Below, in pieces: positions 11,361 to 30,784 of a stretch of 32,000 nucleotides of DNA (the stretch's first letter is position 1; the number at the start of each line of letters is the position of its first letter). The translations under genes and the position numbers were made by a program. The notes beneath the pieces were generated by a model that was given only the letters and a program-made list of their open reading frames with translations, was not told the origin of the DNA and searched no databases. The stretch spans positions 1 to 32,000 of the forward strand of contig NZ_OZ026462.1 in the NCBI RefSeq assembly GCF_964019745.1, given 5' to 3'. Source of the DNA: Candidatus Saccharimonadota bacterium (GTDB lineage Bacteria > Pseudomonadota > Gammaproteobacteria > Burkholderiales > Burkholderiaceae).

Positions 11361-12240
11361 ATATTTTTATATAAAATTATATAAATAGTTTAATATTTAA
11401 TATAAATAAAATATTTATATATAATATATAAAAATATTTTATATTATTTAAATAATAATAAAATATAAAAATATATTTATATTTATATAAAATTATATTA
11501 AAATATTAATATTTAAAATAATAATAATGTAATTAAAAAATAATTTAATTTTAAAAAATTTATATATTTCAATTTTATTAAAATATAAATTTAATTTATT
11601 AATTTATAATATTATAAAAAATAATTTAAATATTTTAATAAAAATTTTATTATTTAAAAAATATAAAAATAAATTTTTTTAAAAAAAATTTATAATTTTT
11701 TTTTTATATTTTATAAAAATAAATATATAAAAAAAATTAAAAATTTTATTTTTTTTAAATAATATTTATAAAATAAATCATATATAAATTATTATTTAAA
11801 AATTATAAAAATTTTAATAAATATATATTTCATTTATTTAAATTTTAAAAAAATTTATTTTATATAAATAATAAATATAAATATTTATATTTATATTTAT
11901 ATTTAAAAAAATAAAAATTAATATTTTTTTATTTTTAAAATAATTATTAAAAATATTAATTTTAAAATTAAAAATATTTAAAAATAATAATATTAAATTA
12001 TTTAAAAAATAATATATATAAAAAATATATATATAACAAAAATTATAATATTTTTTAAAAAATTAATTTAATATTTTTTTCATAAAATTTAAAATATATT
12101 TTATTAAAAATAATTTTTTTATAAAAAATATAAATAAAAAAAAATATTAAATATAAATAAAATTTTTATTTATAATTTTTATATAAAATTATTTAATTTA
12201 ATAAAATTTAATTAAAAATTAAATAATATAATAAATTATT
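11361..12240. other. 880-nt non-coding spacer of almost pure A+T (7 G/C by my count), with no ORF in the track
   Basis: Direct count. The G/C are at 11388, 11529, 11570, 11779, 11831, 12037 and 12081 only, with G/C-free runs of over 200 nt. Contains a small (ATATTT)x4 microsatellite at 11881-11904. Confidence 0.9.
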
Positions 12241-15529: not shown

Positions 15530-15740
15530 AAAAATTTAAATTAATAATTTTATTATTAAAATAAAAATTATTTTTTATATTATTTAATAATTTAATAATA
15601 AATTTTTTTAAAAAAATTAAATTTTTTTAATTTTTTTTTATTAAATTAATTTTTAAATTTTTTTATAATTTGAAAAAAATTTTAATTTTTAAAATATATT
15701 AATTTTTTAAAAAAAAAATATTTATTTATATATTTAATAA

Positions 15741-15997
15741 ACTTAATAAACTTAATAAACTTAATAAACTTAATAAACTTAATAAACTTAATAAACTTAA
15801 TAAACTTAATAAACTTAATAAACTTAATAAACTTAATAAACTTAATAAACTTAATAAACTTAATAAACTTAATAAACTTAATAAACTTAATAAACTTAAT
15901 AAACTTAATAAAGTTAATAAAGTTAATAAAGTTAATAAAGTTAATAAAGTTAATAAAGTTAATAAAGTTAATAAAGTTAATAAAGTTAATAAAGTTA
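15741..15997. repeat. Tandem 9-mer array in two perfect blocks: (ACTTAATAA)x19 at 15741-15911, then (AGTTAATAA)x9 at 15912-15992, plus degenerate end copies
   Basis: Counted directly. One degenerate copy, ATTTAATAA, precedes the array at 15732-15740, and AGTTATTT trails it. Lies in the 592-nt spacer downstream of dnaJ and upstream of tilS. Confidence 0.95.
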
Positions 15998-19284: not shown

Positions 19285-19887
19285 TTATTCTTTTTTTTTT
19301 GCTACTATTACTAAAGCTGGGCGTAATAAACGATCATATAACATATATCCTTTTTGTAAAACATCAACTATAGTATTATTTTCTTGTTCAGAAATAATTA
19401 TAGATATAGCTTGATGTTTCATAGGGTCTAAACATTCTCCAATTTTTGGAGAAATTTCTATAAAACTATTTTTATCAAAAATATTAGATAATTGTTTTAA
19501 AGTTAAATTAATACCACTTTTTAAAACTTCTATTGAAGAAATATTTATTTTTAAAGAACTTTCTAAACTATCTCTAATAGGCAATAAAGATTTAGCAAAT
19601 TTATATATAGAATATTTATATATTTTTTTAATCTCATTTTGAAAACGTTTACTATTATTTTCTATTTCTGCTCTAGCTCTTAAAAAAGCTTCTTTAACTT
19701 TTTTAAATTTTTTTTTAATTTTAATTATTTTTTTTTTTAACTTTTTTTTTTTTATTAAACATAAAGAAATTTTATTTTTTTTATTATTTTTTTTTTTTTC
19801 AATATTTTCATCTATAATATTAGTTTTTTTACTTCTCTCCTCTAAATTCTTAAAAATATTACTATTTTTTTTAATATTTTTATCCAT
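19285..19887 (-). CDS. grpE: Nucleotide exchange factor GrpE
   Basis: 200 aa. RARAEIENNSKRFQNE...FAKSLLPIRDSLE matches the GrpE core. First gene of the grpE-dnaK-dnaJ cluster. Confidence 0.9.
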   Translation of the reverse strand: MDKNIKKNSNIFKNLEERSKKTNIIDENIEKKKNNKKNKISLCLIKKKKLKKKIIKIKKKFKKVKEAFLRARAEIENNSKRFQNEIKKIYKYSIYKFAKSLLPIRDSLESSLKINISSIEVLKSGINLTLKQLSNIFDKNSFIEISPKIGECLDPMKHQAISIIISEQENNTIVDVLQKGYMLYDRLLRPALVIVAKKKE

Positions 19888-19940
19888 ATAATTATTTTAA
19901 ATAAGTTAATATATTTTTTAAAAAAAAATTAATATTCATA

Positions 19941-19969
19941 ATTATAATTAATTAATTAATTAAATTCAA
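19941..19969 (-). promoter_or_regulatory. Candidate sigma70-like promoter for grpE-dnaK-dnaJ: TTGAAT-N17-TATAAT
   Basis: The minus strand reads TTGAAT (19969-19964), a 17-nt spacer, then TATAAT (19946-19941), about 54 nt upstream of the grpE ATG. The G of TTGAAT is one of only three G/C in the non-repeat part of this spacer. TATAAT-like hexamers are frequent by chance in this composition. Confidence 0.25.
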
Positions 19970-20011
19970 TATATTATTTTAATTTTAAAAAATATTTTTT
20001 ATAAAAAAATA

Positions 20012-20228
20012 TATATTATATATTATATATTATATATTATATATTATATATTATATATTATATATTATATATTATATATTATATATTATATATTATATAT
20101 TATATATTATATATTATATATTATATATTATATATTATATATTATATATTATATATTATATATTATATATTATATATTATATATTATATATTATATATTA
20201 TATATTATATATTATATATTATATATTA
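20012..20228. repeat. Tandem block A: (TATATTA)x31, perfect
   Basis: Counted from TT dinucleotides at 20016+7k, k=0..30. Confidence 0.95.
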
Positions 20229-20229
20229 T

Positions 20230-20471
20230 ATATATATTACATATATATTACATATATATTACATATATATTACATATATATTACATATATATTACATATA
20301 TATTACATATATATTACATATATATTACATATATATTACATATATATTACATATATATTACATATATATTACATATATATTACATATATATTACATATAT
20401 ATTACATATATATTACATATATATTACATATATATTACATATATATTACATATATATTACATATATATTAC
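20230..20471. repeat. Tandem block B: (ATATATATTAC)x22, perfect
   Basis: C at 20240+11k, k=0..21. Confidence 0.95.
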
Positions 20472-20647
20472 ATATATACTACATATATACTACATATATA
20501 CTACATATATACTACATATATACTACATATATACTACATATATACTACATATATACTACATATATACTACATATATACTACATATATACTACATATATAC
20601 TACATATATACTACATATATACTACATATATACTACATATATACTAC
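20472..20647. repeat. Tandem block C: (ATATATACTAC)x16, perfect; one T-to-C change relative to block B
   Basis: C positions at 20479/20482 and every 11 nt up to 20644/20647. Confidence 0.95.
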
Positions 20648-20654
20648 ATATATA

Positions 20655-21424
20655 CTATACATATACTATACATATACTATACATATACTATACATATACT
20701 ATACATATACTATACATATACTATACATATACTATACATATACTATACATATACTATACATATACTATACATATACTATACATATACTATACATATACTA
20801 TACATATACTATACATATACTATACATATACTATACATATACTATACATATACTATACATATACTATACATATACTATACATATACTATACATATACTAT
20901 ACATATACTATACATATACTATACATATACTATACATATACTATACATATACTATACATATACTATACATATACTATACATATACTATACATATACTATA
21001 CATATACTATACATATACTATACATATACTATACATATACTATACATATACTATACATATACTATACATATACTATACATATACTATACATATACTATAC
21101 ATATACTATACATATACTATACATATACTATACATATACTATACATATACTATACATATACTATACATATACTATACATATACTATACATATACTATACA
21201 TATACTATACATATACTATACATATACTATACATATACTATACATATACTATACATATACTATACATATACTATACATATACTATACATATACTATACAT
21301 ATACTATACATATACTATACATATACTATACATATACTATACATATACTATACATATACTATACATATACTATACATATACTATACATATACTATACATA
21401 TACTATACATATACTATACATATA
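20655..21424. repeat. Tandem block D: (CTATACATATA)x70, perfect (770 bp)
   Basis: C spacing alternates 5 and 6 nt from 20655 to 21424. Phase checked at both ends (770 = 70 x 11). Confidence 0.95.
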
Positions 21425-21699
21425 CTATATGTATACTATATGTATACTATATGTATACTATATGTATACTATATGTATACTATATGTATACTATATGTAT
21501 ACTATATGTATACTATATGTATACTATATGTATACTATATGTATACTATATGTATACTATATGTATACTATATGTATACTATATGTATACTATATGTATA
21601 CTATATGTATACTATATGTATACTATATGTATACTATATGTATACTATATGTATACTATATGTATACTATATGTATACTATATGTATACTATATGTATA
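21425..21699. repeat. Tandem block E: (CTATATGTATA)x25, perfect; carries a GTATAC palindrome every 11 bp
   Basis: C at 21425+11k and G at 21431+11k, k=0..24. This block creates the three overlapping phantom ORFs (MYTICILYVYY repeats) in the track. Confidence 0.95.
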
Positions 21700-21838
21700 A
21701 TATATATATAATATATATATAATATATATATAATATATATATAATATATATATAATATATATATAATATATATATAATATATATATAATATATATATAAT
21801 ATATATATAATATATATATAATATATATATAATATATA
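21700..21838. repeat. Tandem block F: (ATATATATATA)x12 plus a 7-nt partial copy; equals block E with both G/C positions changed to A
   Basis: AA junctions every 11 nt from 21699/21700 to 21831/21832. The array ends at C 21839. Confidence 0.9.
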
Positions 21839-21919
21839 CTTTTATAAATATATTATATTAATATAATTTGTTTATTTTTAATTTTTTTTTATATATAATA
21901 TATTAATTAATTTATAAAA

Positions 21920-21992
21920 GGCTTGGTAGCTCAGTTGGTAGAGCAAAGGACTGAAAATCCTTGTGTCAGTGGTTCAATTCCACTCCAAGCCA
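21920..21992 (+). tRNA. tRNA-Phe (anticodon GAA)
   Basis: Hand-folded cloverleaf. Acceptor GGCTTGG/CCAAGCC, D-arm GCTC-AGTTGGTA-GAGC, anticodon arm AAGGA-CTGAAAA-TCCTT (anticodon GAA), variable GTGTC, T-arm AGTGG-TTCAATT-CCACT, discriminator A. Confidence 0.93.
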
Positions 21993-22014: not shown

Positions 22015-22809
22015 ATGATTCAATATTTAAATTTAATAAAATTCATTTTAAAAAATGGAATAAAAAAATCTGACAGAACTAATACAGGAACAAAATCAAT
22101 TTTTGGTTATCAAATGAGATTTAATTTAAAAAAAGGTTTTCCAATTTTAACAACTAAAAAAATATATTTTAAAAGTATAATATATGAATTAATATGGTTT
22201 TTAACAGGTTCAAAAAATATAAAATATTTAAAAAAAAATAATATTAATATTTGGAATAATTGGGCTGATGAAAATGATAATATAGGACCATCATATGGAT
22301 ATCAATGGATATATTGGCCTACTAATAATAATAAACATATAAATCAAATAAAAAAAATTATAAATAAAATTAAAAAAAATCCAAATTCAAGACGTTTAAT
22401 AGTATCAGCTTGGAATGTTGCAGATATTAAAAAAACAAAACTTCCACCATGTCATGTACTATTTCAATTTTATGTTTCTAATAATAATTTATCTTGTCAA
22501 TTATATCAAAGAAGTGCTGATGTTTTTATAGGACTTCCTTTTAATATTACATCATATGCTTTACTTATTCATATGATTGCTCAACAAACAAAATTAAAAG
22601 TAGGAGAATTTATTTGGACAGGTGGAGATTGTCATTTATATAAAACACATTTAAAACAAGCTAAAATACAATTAAAAAGAACTCCAACATTATTACCAAA
22701 ATTAAAGATTATTAATAAACCTAAAAGTATATTTAATTATAAATTTGAAAATTTTAAATTAATTAATTATAACCCACAAGAATATATAAAAGCAAAAATA
22801 TCTATTTAA
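22015..22809 (+). CDS. thyA: Thymidylate synthase
   Basis: 264 aa. YLNLIKFILKNG...DRTNTGTKSIFGYQMRFNL..GFPILTTKK and the active-site motif LPPCHVLFQFYV. Same length as E. coli ThyA. Confidence 0.97.
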   Translation: MIQYLNLIKFILKNGIKKSDRTNTGTKSIFGYQMRFNLKKGFPILTTKKIYFKSIIYELIWFLTGSKNIKYLKKNNINIWNNWADENDNIGPSYGYQWIYWPTNNNKHINQIKKIINKIKKNPNSRRLIVSAWNVADIKKTKLPPCHVLFQFYVSNNNLSCQLYQRSADVFIGLPFNITSYALLIHMIAQQTKLKVGEFIWTGGDCHLYKTHLKQAKIQLKRTPTLLPKLKIINKPKSIFNYKFENFKLINYNPQEYIKAKISI

Positions 22810-28042: not shown

Positions 28043-30784
28043 ATGATAAATAAAATTATTTTAAAAAAAAAAAATAAATATAAAAATATTTCTTATTCAT
28101 ATCTTTTTAGTGAAAATATTAAATATTTAGAATATTTATTAAATAAAAATACTAAAATTACAAAAAAAAATATAAAAAAAAACATAGAAAAAAACATAGA
28201 AAAAAACATAGAAAAAAATATAAAAAAAAAAATATTACATTTAAAAATTAAAAAATTAATTAATAATTATAGAAATCTAGGATTTAAAAAATCAAATATT
28301 AATCCATTAAAAATAAATAAATGTAAATTAAAAAAATTAGATTTAAATTTTTATAATTTTAAAGAAAATGATTTTAAAAAAAAAATTAATATTAAAAATA
28401 TTTTTTTAAAAAATAAAAAATTATTTTTACATGAATTATATAATGCTCTAAATAAAATTTATTCTAAATTTATTGGTATAGAATTTTCTTATATTAATAA
28501 AAAAAAGGAAGTTTCTTGGATACAAAAAAAAATTGAAGAATCATATCAAAGTTTCTTTTTATCAAAAGAAAAAAAAATAAATATTTTAAAAAAAATAATA
28601 GCTGCAGAAGAATGGGAAATATATTTAAGTAAAAACTTTATAGGACAAAAAAGATTCTCATTAGAAGGTGCAGAAAGTATAATACCTTTATTAGATGAAA
28701 TAATTTTTTATTCATTAAAAAAAAAAATTAAAAAAATTATAATAGGAATGTCACATAGAGGAAGATTAAATGTTTTAGCAAATATTTTAGGTAAAAAACC
28801 TAAAAAAATTTTCAATGAATTTAATGAAATATCTTTTAAAAATATTTTTGGAGATGTAAAATATCATAAAGGATTTTCTTCTAAAATTTTTACTTCAAAA
28901 GGAAATATAAATTTATATTTATCTTTTAATCCTTCACATTTAGAAGCAGTAAATCCAGTAGTAGAAGGAATTACAAAAGCTTTTATGAATAAAAAACAAG
29001 AAAATATTTTACCAATTTTAATACATGGTGATGCGGCTTTTTCTGGACAAGGAATAGTTATGGAAACACTTAATTTATCACAAACTAAAGGTTATACTAC
29101 TAATGGTACAATACATATTATTATTAATAATCAAATAGGTTTTACTACTTCAAAAATTAAAGAATCTAGATCTAATATTTTTTGTACAGATATTGTTAAA
29201 ATGATTGAAGCACCTGTATTACATATTAATGTAGAAAATTTAAAATCAATAATTTTAGCTATACAAATAGCTATAGATTATAAAATAAAATTTAAAAAAG
29301 ATATTGTTTTAGATATTATTTGTTTTAGAAAATTAGGACATAATGAACAAGATACTCCATCTTTAACACAACCTTTAATGTATGAAAAAATTAATAAACA
29401 TATAGGTATTAAAAATTTATATATTAATAAATTAGTTAATGAAAAAATAATTTCTAAACAAGAAGTTAATAAAATTATAGATGATTATAAAAATTTAATT
29501 AATATACAAAAAAAACAAATTACTGGGTATTTTTTAAAAAAAAATTTATTTATGTATAATAAAAATTGGAAATTTTTTTTAAATAAAAAACAAAATAATA
29601 ATGTTATTACATCTATAGAAATAAAAAAAATTAAAGAACTTTCAAAAAAAATTACTACTATACCAAAAAAATTTAAATTACATAATTTAATTAAAAAAAT
29701 AATAAAAAATAGAATTTTAATGGGTAATGGTAAAAAAAAAATTGATTGGGGTATGAGTGAACATTTAGCATATGCATCATTATTAATATCTGGATATAAT
29801 ATAAGATTAAGTGGACAAGATTCAGAAAGAGGAACTTTTTCTCATAGACATGCTGTAATACATGATCAAAATATTAAAAAATATAATAATGGTGAATATA
29901 TTCCTTTACAAAATATTCAAAAAAATCAATCAAAATTTGAAATTATAAATTCAGTTTTATCTGAAAAAGCAATATTAGGTTTTGAATATGGATTTTCATT
30001 AGTAGAACCAAATAATTTAACAATTTGGGAAGCTCAATTTGGAGATTTTGCTAATGAAGCACAAGTTATTATAGATCAATTTATAAGTTCAGGAGAAAAA
30101 AAATGGGGATTAATATCGGGGATTGTTTTAATGTTACCACATGGTTTTGAAGGACAGGGACCTGAACATTCTTCTGCAAGATTAGAAAGATATTTACAAT
30201 TATGTTCTAATCAAAATTTACAAATAATACAACCTACAACTTCAAAACAATTATTTCATTTATTACGTCGTCAAGTAATAGGAAATTTTAGAAAACCATT
30301 AATTTTAATAATGCCTAAATCTTTATTAAGAAATGAGAATTCTAGTTCTAATTTAGAAGAATTAGCTAATGGTAAATTTGAGAATATTATAAAAAATAAA
30401 TGTAATAATATTATTTCTAATATTACAAATTTAATAATTTGTTCTGGAAAGATATATTTTGATATAATTAAAAAAAATGAAAAATATAATTTAAAAAATA
30501 TTTTTATAATTAGAATAGAACAATTATATCCTTTTCCTAAAAAAGATTTTTTTAAATTTATAAAAAAAATTAAAAATCTTAAAAAAATAATTTGGGTACA
30601 AGAAGAACCTAAAAATCAAGGAGCATGGTTATATATTAAAGAAAAAATTTCTAAAAAACTTAAAAAAAATCAAAAAATTTCTTATATTGGTCGTATTTCT
30701 AGTTCTTCTACAGCTACAGGTTGTTATAAACAACATTGTTTAGAACAAAAAAAAATTTTAAAAAAAATTTTTTCAAAAAAATAA
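28043..30784 (+). CDS. sucA: 2-oxoglutarate dehydrogenase E1 component
   Basis: 913 aa. KRFSLEGAES, MSHRGRLNVLAN, HGDAAFSGQG, NNQIGFTT, GQDSERGTFSHRHA, WEAQFGDFAN, LPHGFEGQGPEHSSARLER. Confidence 0.97.
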   Translation: MINKIILKKKNKYKNISYSYLFSENIKYLEYLLNKNTKITKKNIKKNIEKNIEKNIEKNIKKKILHLKIKKLINNYRNLGFKKSNINPLKINKCKLKKLDLNFYNFKENDFKKKINIKNIFLKNKKLFLHELYNALNKIYSKFIGIEFSYINKKKEVSWIQKKIEESYQSFFLSKEKKINILKKIIAAEEWEIYLSKNFIGQKRFSLEGAESIIPLLDEIIFYSLKKKIKKIIIGMSHRGRLNVLANILGKKPKKIFNEFNEISFKNIFGDVKYHKGFSSKIFTSKGNINLYLSFNPSHLEAVNPVVEGITKAFMNKKQENILPILIHGDAAFSGQGIVMETLNLSQTKGYTTNGTIHIIINNQIGFTTSKIKESRSNIFCTDIVKMIEAPVLHINVENLKSIILAIQIAIDYKIKFKKDIVLDIICFRKLGHNEQDTPSLTQPLMYEKINKHIGIKNLYINKLVNEKIISKQEVNKIIDDYKNLINIQKKQITGYFLKKNLFMYNKNWKFFLNKKQNNNVITSIEIKKIKELSKKITTIPKKFKLHNLIKKIIKNRILMGNGKKKIDWGMSEHLAYASLLISGYNIRLSGQDSERGTFSHRHAVIHDQNIKKYNNGEYIPLQNIQKNQSKFEIINSVLSEKAILGFEYGFSLVEPNNLTIWEAQFGDFANEAQVIIDQFISSGEKKWGLISGIVLMLPHGFEGQGPEHSSARLERYLQLCSNQNLQIIQPTTSKQLFHLLRRQVIGNFRKPLILIMPKSLLRNENSSSNLEELANGKFENIIKNKCNNIISNITNLIICSGKIYFDIIKKNEKYNLKNIFIIRIEQLYPFPKKDFFKFIKKIKNLKKIIWVQEEPKNQGAWLYIKEKISKKLKKNQKISYIGRISSSSTATGCYKQHCLEQKKILKKIFSKK

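Follow-up and report, generated by a model that had tools for sequence, protein, structure and literature searches.

A composite tandem array of 7-bp and 11-bp units between grpE and tRNA-Phe in a spittlebug Zinderia symbiont

Structure of the array

The DNA analysed here is a stretch of 32 kb (the window) from the start of a 336,619-bp contig of 'Candidatus Zinderia endosymbiont of Aphrophora alni', a spittlebug symbiont. Three products of genes in the window, ThyA, DnaK and GrpE, match proteins of this symbiont at 100% identity. Between grpE and the tRNA-Phe and thyA genes there is a tandem array of approximately 1.8 kb (20012–21838), in which a 7-bp repeat block is followed by 145 complete 11-bp units. 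An initial annotation of the window had placed grpE (- strand) to the left of the array and tRNA-Phe(GAA) and thyA (+ strand) to its right, and these assignments are correct. The array makes up 90% of this divergent spacer of 2032 bp. Without it the spacer would be 205 bp (124 + 81), which is ordinary for a divergent gene pair in the window. The features of the locus are given in Table 1. The promoter of tRNA-Phe and thyA is presumably within the 81 bp to the right of the array, where no consensus promoter was called on the + strand.

The blocks were defined by exact regular-expression and register parsing, using a common register from position 20237. From here to 21831 the complete 11-bp units are in one unbroken register, without an insertion or deletion at any of the block boundaries. 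Units abut head to tail with no unique spacers and exact periodic runs are continuous over 20010–21838. The five types of 11-bp unit correspond to five contiguous blocks, with no interspersion and no singletons, and none of the 145 units deviates from the sequence of its own block. Including the 7-bp block, there are six different units, two periods and 176 copies. The blocks A to F, the copy numbers and the purity recorded in the initial annotation were reproduced exactly, including the 70 copies of the block D unit that make up 770 bp without a substitution. Tandem Repeats Finder (TRF) identifies a single array at 20009–21838 (period 11, 167.3 copies, score 2177), the next-best score in the window being 458. 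With minimum values of 24 bp and three copies, exact periodic runs are found at only four loci in the 32 kb, with 6 out of the 10 runs in the main array.

Every block is essentially an interrupted (TA)n, in which a run of (TA)k with one extra base gives the odd periods of 7 and 11. Transitions number 0–2 per unit. Purines and pyrimidines alternate at 91% of the steps in the array (86% to 92% per block), as against 45% for the window. There are 4–5 TpA steps per 11 bp and no block contains an A-tract of more than 3 nt.

When the 11-bp units are compared in register, B differs from C at one position and from F at two, while C, D, E and F are mutually at a Hamming distance of 2. Apart from the B–C pair, being neighbours in the array is therefore no guide to how closely two blocks are related. 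Each block had initially been described as closely similar to its neighbour. This holds for B and C, with their one change, but neighbours are not especially close, since blocks that do not adjoin are equally alike. The change from C to D, which had been seen as a shift of TA, is in fact two substitutions that are equal to moving TA and that leave the register as it was. Based on the unit distances, a star tree through an unobserved unit, CTATATATATA, has five changes. In this tree T4C generates C, T6C generates D, A7G generates E and C1A generates F, with C1T then turning C into B. The linear path B-C-D-E-F has seven changes. A linear, stepwise record running from A to F, as had been proposed, is no better supported than the star, and the array is unreadable as an ordered history.

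Table 1. Features of the grpE to thyA locus and of the second array (positions in the window)
Feature	Position	Strand	Description
grpE	19285–19887	-	Left boundary gene; heads the grpE-dnaK-dnaJ operon; NCBIfam GrpE equivalog, 189.7 bits; product 100% identical to WP_339044983.1 (Ca. Zinderia endosymbiont of Aphrophora alni)
Non-repetitive left flank	19888–20011		124 bp, 97.6% A+T; likely site of the grpE promoter
Candidate grpE promoter	19969–19941	-	Sigma-70-like, TTGAAT-17-TATAAT, 10/12 matches
Block A	20012–20228		(TATATTA)x31; 100% A+T
(TA)4 bridge	20229–20236		8 nt; joins the 7-bp lattice to the 11-bp lattice
Block B	20237–20478		(TTACATATATA)x22
Block C	20479–20654		(CTACATATATA)x16; one change relative to B
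Block D	20655–21424		(CTATACATATA)x70; 770 bp, zero substitutions
Block E	21425–21699		(CTATATGTATA)x25; unit matches the reverse complement of the D unit at 10/11 positions
Block F	21700–21838		(ATATATATATA)x12 + 7-nt partial unit; 100% A+T
D/E quasi-palindrome	21150–21699		Two 275-bp arms, centre 21424/21425; 10-bp helices with single C/C mismatches between
Non-repetitive right flank	21839–21919		81 bp; presumed tRNA-Phe/thyA promoter
tRNA-Phe (GAA)	21920–21992	+	Right boundary gene; ARAGORN; Rfam tRNA, 74.4 bits
thyA	22015–22809	+	22 bp past tRNA-Phe; ThyA equivalog, 432.9 bits
Second array	15734–15997		592-bp spacer between tilS and dnaJ; (TTAATAAAC)x~20, then directly (TTAATAAAG)x~10

Composition, stability and folding

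The GC content of the array is 13.4%, rising to 18.2% in blocks C–E, compared with 2.3% for intergenic DNA outside the array and 2.8% for fourfold-degenerate sites. For the window as a whole it is 16.7%. There are 244 G/C positions in the array and all of these are intact. A GC content so far over the neutral level of 2–3% places the array away from mutational equilibrium, making it either young or continually homogenised. Under mutation pressure directed towards AT the array cannot be old, unless it is continually homogenised or selected. Along the array the GC profile is symmetric, being 0% in A, 9% in B, 18% in C, D and E, and 0% in F.

The second array, 4 kb from the main array, has a 9-bp period and is likewise made up of pure blocks, one change apart and without interspersion. 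In addition, the sucA coding sequence carries a perfect in-frame 12-bp repeat of 3.6 copies at 28176–28218 (AAAAAAACATAG), which generates KNIE repeats near the N-terminus of SucA. Together with the second array, this indicates that slippage products are present at several sites within the 32 kb, coding sequence included. The tight packing of genes noted in the initial annotation is seen in 20 of the 23 spacers, which are no longer than 131 bp. The exceptions are the 2032-bp spacer of the main array and two others, of 879 bp and 592 bp. The array is thus less unexpected for this genome than had been thought: two of the 23 spacers contain perfect block arrays and a third is the 879-bp spacer, a stretch of 99.2% A+T. 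This third spacer, at 11361–12239 between a gene for an ETF-QO-like oxidoreductase and tRNA-Arg/glnS, has only weak, degenerate periodicities of 24–85 bp, which are possibly the chance product of low complexity. By description alone, it resembles the 98.3% A+T part of a non-coding region in Nasuia.

Duplex stability was calculated by the nearest-neighbour method in 200-bp windows over the 32 kb. The least stable of these starts at 20018, with the block A mean of -0.773 kcal/mol per stack, and block F is the second least stable. Blocks C–E are near average, at -0.97 kcal/mol per stack against a mean of -1.05. These low values are set in a genome of 83% A+T overall, in which further spacers come close to the instability of blocks A and F. 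The suggestion that the array is helically phased is weakened. A period of 11 bp only approximates the DNA helical repeat, and since the units have no A-tracts a strong intrinsic bend is not expected.

The quasi-palindrome at the junction of blocks D and E, with its two arms of 275 bp, is new relative to the initial annotation. As a single strand, 21150–21699 forms one hairpin, with 25 helices of ten base pairs each, at -131.4 kcal/mol (z = -16.2 relative to dinucleotide shuffles). A 250-nt version of the hairpin has -57.2 kcal/mol (z = -9.2), and block D alone has no fold, with a minimum free energy of 0 (z = +4.96). The fold-back is inexact, in that C is kept as C. This complementarity follows naturally if one central transition of the palindromic TATATATATA core hit opposite strands. 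A micro-inversion or a template switch, changing CA to TG, would also produce it.

Origin of the array

The array is likely to be a slippage-generated variable-number tandem repeat (VNTR) in non-coding DNA, unusually large, pure and composite, and it probably has no sequence-specific function. The units are head to tail in non-coding DNA. Variants are confined to contiguous blocks, with 0 of the 145 units misplaced, as in the 9-bp array. The composition is out of equilibrium, as when turnover outpaces point mutation. A single register of 145 units, with five types that are each contiguous, is the pattern expected from the duplication of adjacent units. The presence of the same block structure in the 9-bp array shows that the process also acts at another locus. 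The initial proposal of a slippage hotspot, at which units mutate and then expand, gains support in this respect from the contiguous pure blocks, the second array, the GC content over neutral and the variation within hosts that is seen in related symbionts.

The array would have started in TA-rich DNA of the promoter spacer and grown in place by replication slippage. Local duplications and deletions of adjoining units could have had the same effect, as could unequal exchange involving sister chromosomes. A one-base interruption of (TA)n would set the odd period, rare transitions would mark single units, and duplication of neighbours would spread each mark into a pure block. This would give five blocks, each continuous and uniform, that share one 11-bp lattice. 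If the array expands and is homogenised much faster than it acquires point mutations, this would account for the 244 G/C positions remaining undecayed at a neutral GC of 2–3%. Misaligned intermediates in such an array would have loops of 7–11 nt, and loops of this size are poorly recognised by MutS of E. coli. Provided that repair is intact here, the escape of these loops from mismatch repair could favour arrays of long units over mono- to tetranucleotide arrays. Stalling and slippage may be increased further by hairpins, both where D meets E and within block F. The array halts before both promoter regions, leaving 124 bp and 81 bp intact, probably as invasion of these would be harmful. Copy number would be expected to vary within a host.

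Some points weigh against this explanation. Copy-number polymorphism, the defining trait of a VNTR, is here a prediction, the array being known from one assembly. Perfect purity and a raised GC content could equally be the outcome of selection on the sequence. The related Z. insecticola is reported to have mutS, mutL and mutH (PMC7952229), so that missing repair is not a ready explanation. The array ends, which are the least stable DNA of the window, and the strong D/E quasi-palindrome leave room for a structural role.

Such a role, as a selected structural element, is rather unlikely. The TA lattice, being readily unwound and prone to hairpins or cruciforms, might take up the supercoils that transcription of the heat-shock operon and of the divergent tRNA-Phe/thyA unit generates between the two. 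It might instead be bound every 11 bp by a protein of the nucleoid or of partition. The instability of blocks A and F and the z of -16.2 for the quasi-palindrome are in keeping with this, although the interior blocks C–E are of near-average stability, strong curvature is not expected, and the complementarity of D and E is automatic if the central transition struck opposite strands of the core. The GC content, at 6–8 times the neutral level with no decayed unit, could be a sign of selection, and the array is positioned exactly between divergent promoters with both flanks intact. The 9-bp array has the same architecture with a different composition and between co-oriented genes, and this is more suggestive of a process than of a site. 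There is a gene for a ybaB/EbfC nucleoid protein 1 kb from the array, but no partition genes adjoin it, and a unit sequence that varies by block, with a period that goes from 7 to 11, is a poor fit to one specific binding site. Strains of Nasuia do retain a large non-coding region that bears repeats. A broader form of the explanation is that the array is a maintained structure of the betaproteobacterial symbionts of Auchenorrhyncha and the counterpart of this Nasuia region. It would include the second array and the spacer of 99.2% A+T, would serve as an unwindable, hairpin-forming lattice in replication, segregation or the management of supercoils, and would have its G/C positions kept by selection. 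This is quite unlikely. A structural element would be the more interesting explanation if true, but it is currently unsupported.

It is very unlikely that the array is an artefact of assembly, wrong in structure or in copy numbers, for example through collapse or inflation of the repeats, through a fold-back chimera that created block E, or through satellite DNA of the host joined in error to the symbiont contig. There is only one assembly, and searches of the Logan, ENA and JGI collections found no second contig whose flanking proteins are 100% identical. Low-complexity, TA-rich DNA is also hard for many sequencing platforms. The genome project of the host, Aphrophora alni, generated 68.61 Gb of PacBio HiFi data in 7.34 million reads with a mean of about 9.3 kb (PMC11579584). 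The symbiont contig appears to be derived from these reads, although the symbiont is not mentioned in the A. alni genome paper (PMC11579584). A mean read is several array lengths, so that single reads should span the array, and its five distinct blocks provide internal landmarks. The flanks on either side are correctly oriented and consist of unique symbiont sequence, block E differs from a fold-back product in being an inexact reverse complement of D, and a second array of the same style is present.

An unwinding element linked to a replication origin or terminus, as had been raised in the initial annotation, is extremely improbable. The array ends are of very low duplex stability, gene orientation diverges at the array, and this is the dnaA-proximal part of the chromosome, with dnaA, dnaN and gyrB opening the window. 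However, the 879-bp spacer is comparably unstable, the array is some 20 kb from dnaA, and 9-mers resembling DnaA boxes (at most one mismatch) number 10 in the window against 8.4 +/- 2.9 expected. There are none in the array or elsewhere in the spacer, the nearest (19880–19888) overlapping the grpE start codon, and no cluster of the kind found at oriC is present. GC skew in the window tracks the gene strand, and within the array it comes only from the units in which C is the sole G/C base. Origins are not normally composed of 145 units of identical period without initiator boxes.

Other identities were rejected. An Rfam scan of the window for structured RNA found only the two tRNAs. Open reading frames of 86–97 aa are present in all three + frames at once around block E, lying almost wholly within it and extending no more than 23 bp into block F, and Pfam matches none of them. 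The units abut without spacers and are not a CRISPR array. An iteron or partition site would have a single conserved site repeated a few times, rather than six units with two periods in 176 copies, and the neighbouring genes (grpE-dnaK-dnaJ, tRNA-Phe, thyA, ybaB and dnaX) include no cognate genes for a binding protein or motor. The motif TTTTATAAA occurs on both sides of the array, but the flanks align with a score of 52 against a null of 55 +/- 8, which does not indicate a mobile insertion or segmental duplication. Three copies of the block D unit are found in 8 metagenome contigs from JGI/ENA, which have a GC content of 26–48% and no more than 9 copies. These are unrelated microsatellites that have arisen by chance.

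Related arrays and the neighbouring genes

Eukaryotic minisatellites of the minisatellite variant repeat (MVR) type and the control-region arrays of organelles also have variants in contiguous runs, undergo concerted evolution through slippage or unequal exchange, and are hypervariable in length. The Zinderia case differs from these in being on a bacterial chromosome, in its shorter units and in the complete purity of its blocks. Plasmid partition sites of the R1 parC type have about ten 11-bp direct-repeat iterons around the promoter region, with adjacent genes of the parM/parR type. The 11-bp period is a formal resemblance only, as the Zinderia array has 145 such units, an inconstant unit sequence and no neighbours of the parM/parR type.

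Closer parallels are found in the reduced genomes of insect symbionts. In the passages of Sloan & Moran 2013 that deal with repeats and repair, short tandem repeats are described as having proliferated in the intergenic regions of 'Ca. Portiera aleyrodidarum' BT, with a spike at 7 bp, and are interpreted as slippage products tied to indel polymorphism. According to the same passages, genes of replication and repair have been lost, dnaQ and mutL among them (PMC3673631). Like the Zinderia symbiont, Portiera BT is a reduced, AT-rich obligate symbiont of insects that has perfect arrays of short units in enlarged intergenic spacers, and its 7-bp class is that of block A. In Portiera BT, dnaQ and mutL have been lost, whereas Z. 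insecticola is reported to keep mutSLH. The keyword-matched passages on the Portiera BT repeats contain no composite lattice of five variant blocks and 145 units in a single register. A keyword search of the Z. insecticola genome paper found no mention of repeat arrays.

'Ca. Nasuia deltocephalinicola' has a GC content of 15–18% (works compared: PMC7952229, PMC5533117, PMC4722273, PMC3787670). Like Zinderia it is a betaproteobacterial co-symbiont of Auchenorrhyncha ('BetaSymb'). An array of 72/79-bp units in Nasuia-MSEV has between 7 and 53 copies among the MinION reads that span it in one sample, and Nasuia is thought to be without conventional mismatch repair (PMC7952229). A large non-coding region of Nasuia, with tandem repeats and a stretch of 98.3% A+T, is conserved between strains and is stated to be of unknown function (PMC5533117). 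An AT-rich repeat of 85 bp has also been described (PMC4722273). The likeness to the Zinderia array, compared by description only, is that of a non-coding tandem array on the kilobase scale that is nearly free of G/C. The units in Nasuia are 72–85 bp in length rather than 7 and 11 bp, and its array is located between hisG and gltX rather than between grpE and tRNA-Phe. In Sulcia, 6-bp arrays of 8–11 copies vary within hosts (PMC7952229).

The Zinderia array is best seen as a further case of the arrays known from Portiera, Nasuia and Sulcia, and opens no new biological question by itself. It places Zinderia beside these symbionts as an example of a reduced genome that deletion bias has not always kept compact. 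A genome of 337 kb can hold kilobase-scale repeat DNA that is far from compositional equilibrium. If the array is indeed a product of slippage, the locus would be a highly informative length marker with five blocks, each of which can be counted independently. Possible uses are the estimation of slippage rates, of symbiont heterogeneity within hosts and of transmission bottlenecks in the spittlebug symbiosis.

None of the sequences found from relatives covers the orthologous spacer. A search of genome contigs with GrpE found only distant, unrelated GrpE loci, the source genome being outside that collection, and relatives of ThyA are no more than 67% identical and in unrelated contexts. Searches with DnaK and GrpE identified three short Logan contigs of related symbionts (L012, L016 and L017), all of which end before the spacer or at its start. 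L012 has 81% nucleotide identity over the partial grpE, dnaK and dnaJ, and begins inside grpE with no upstream sequence. It has a glutaredoxin-like gene directly after dnaJ, in place of the 9-bp array and tilS. In L016 and L017, GrpE is 69–70% identical and the contigs stop 139–170 bp upstream of grpE; over those short stretches there is no convincing alignment with the flank in the window. L016 (Logan ERR14886530, GrpE 69% identical) terminates in (AT)9 approximately 170 bp upstream of grpE. This is suggestive only, but would fit a TA-rich repeat at the equivalent place that could not be traversed by a short-read assembler.

The window begins within dnaA, as the dnaA frame (1–1073) is open from the first base and its match to a hidden Markov model (HMM) begins at profile position 108. 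The array is downstream of dnaA. The dnaA gene is followed on the + strand by dnaN, gyrB, hisC, leuS, holA, the gene for the ETF-QO-like oxidoreductase, tRNA-Arg and glnS. Between glnS and the array are tilS, dnaJ, dnaK and grpE on the - strand. Beyond the array, tRNA-Phe and thyA on the + strand are followed by ybaB and dnaX on the - strand, and then on the + strand by sdhCDAB, a gene for an Sdh5-like flavinator, sucA and a gene for a 2-oxoacid dehydrogenase E2. With the exception of dnaA, which is truncated at the start of the window, all 22 protein genes are complete. Tryptophan is encoded by TGG in these genes (80 codons) and none is interrupted by an in-frame TGA. TAA is the stop codon of 20 and TGA of two (sdhC and sdhB), each of which has a TAA one codon further. 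In Z. insecticola CARI, UGA is decoded as tryptophan. The Zinderia of Aphrophora alni may use the standard code, or may merely avoid UGA.

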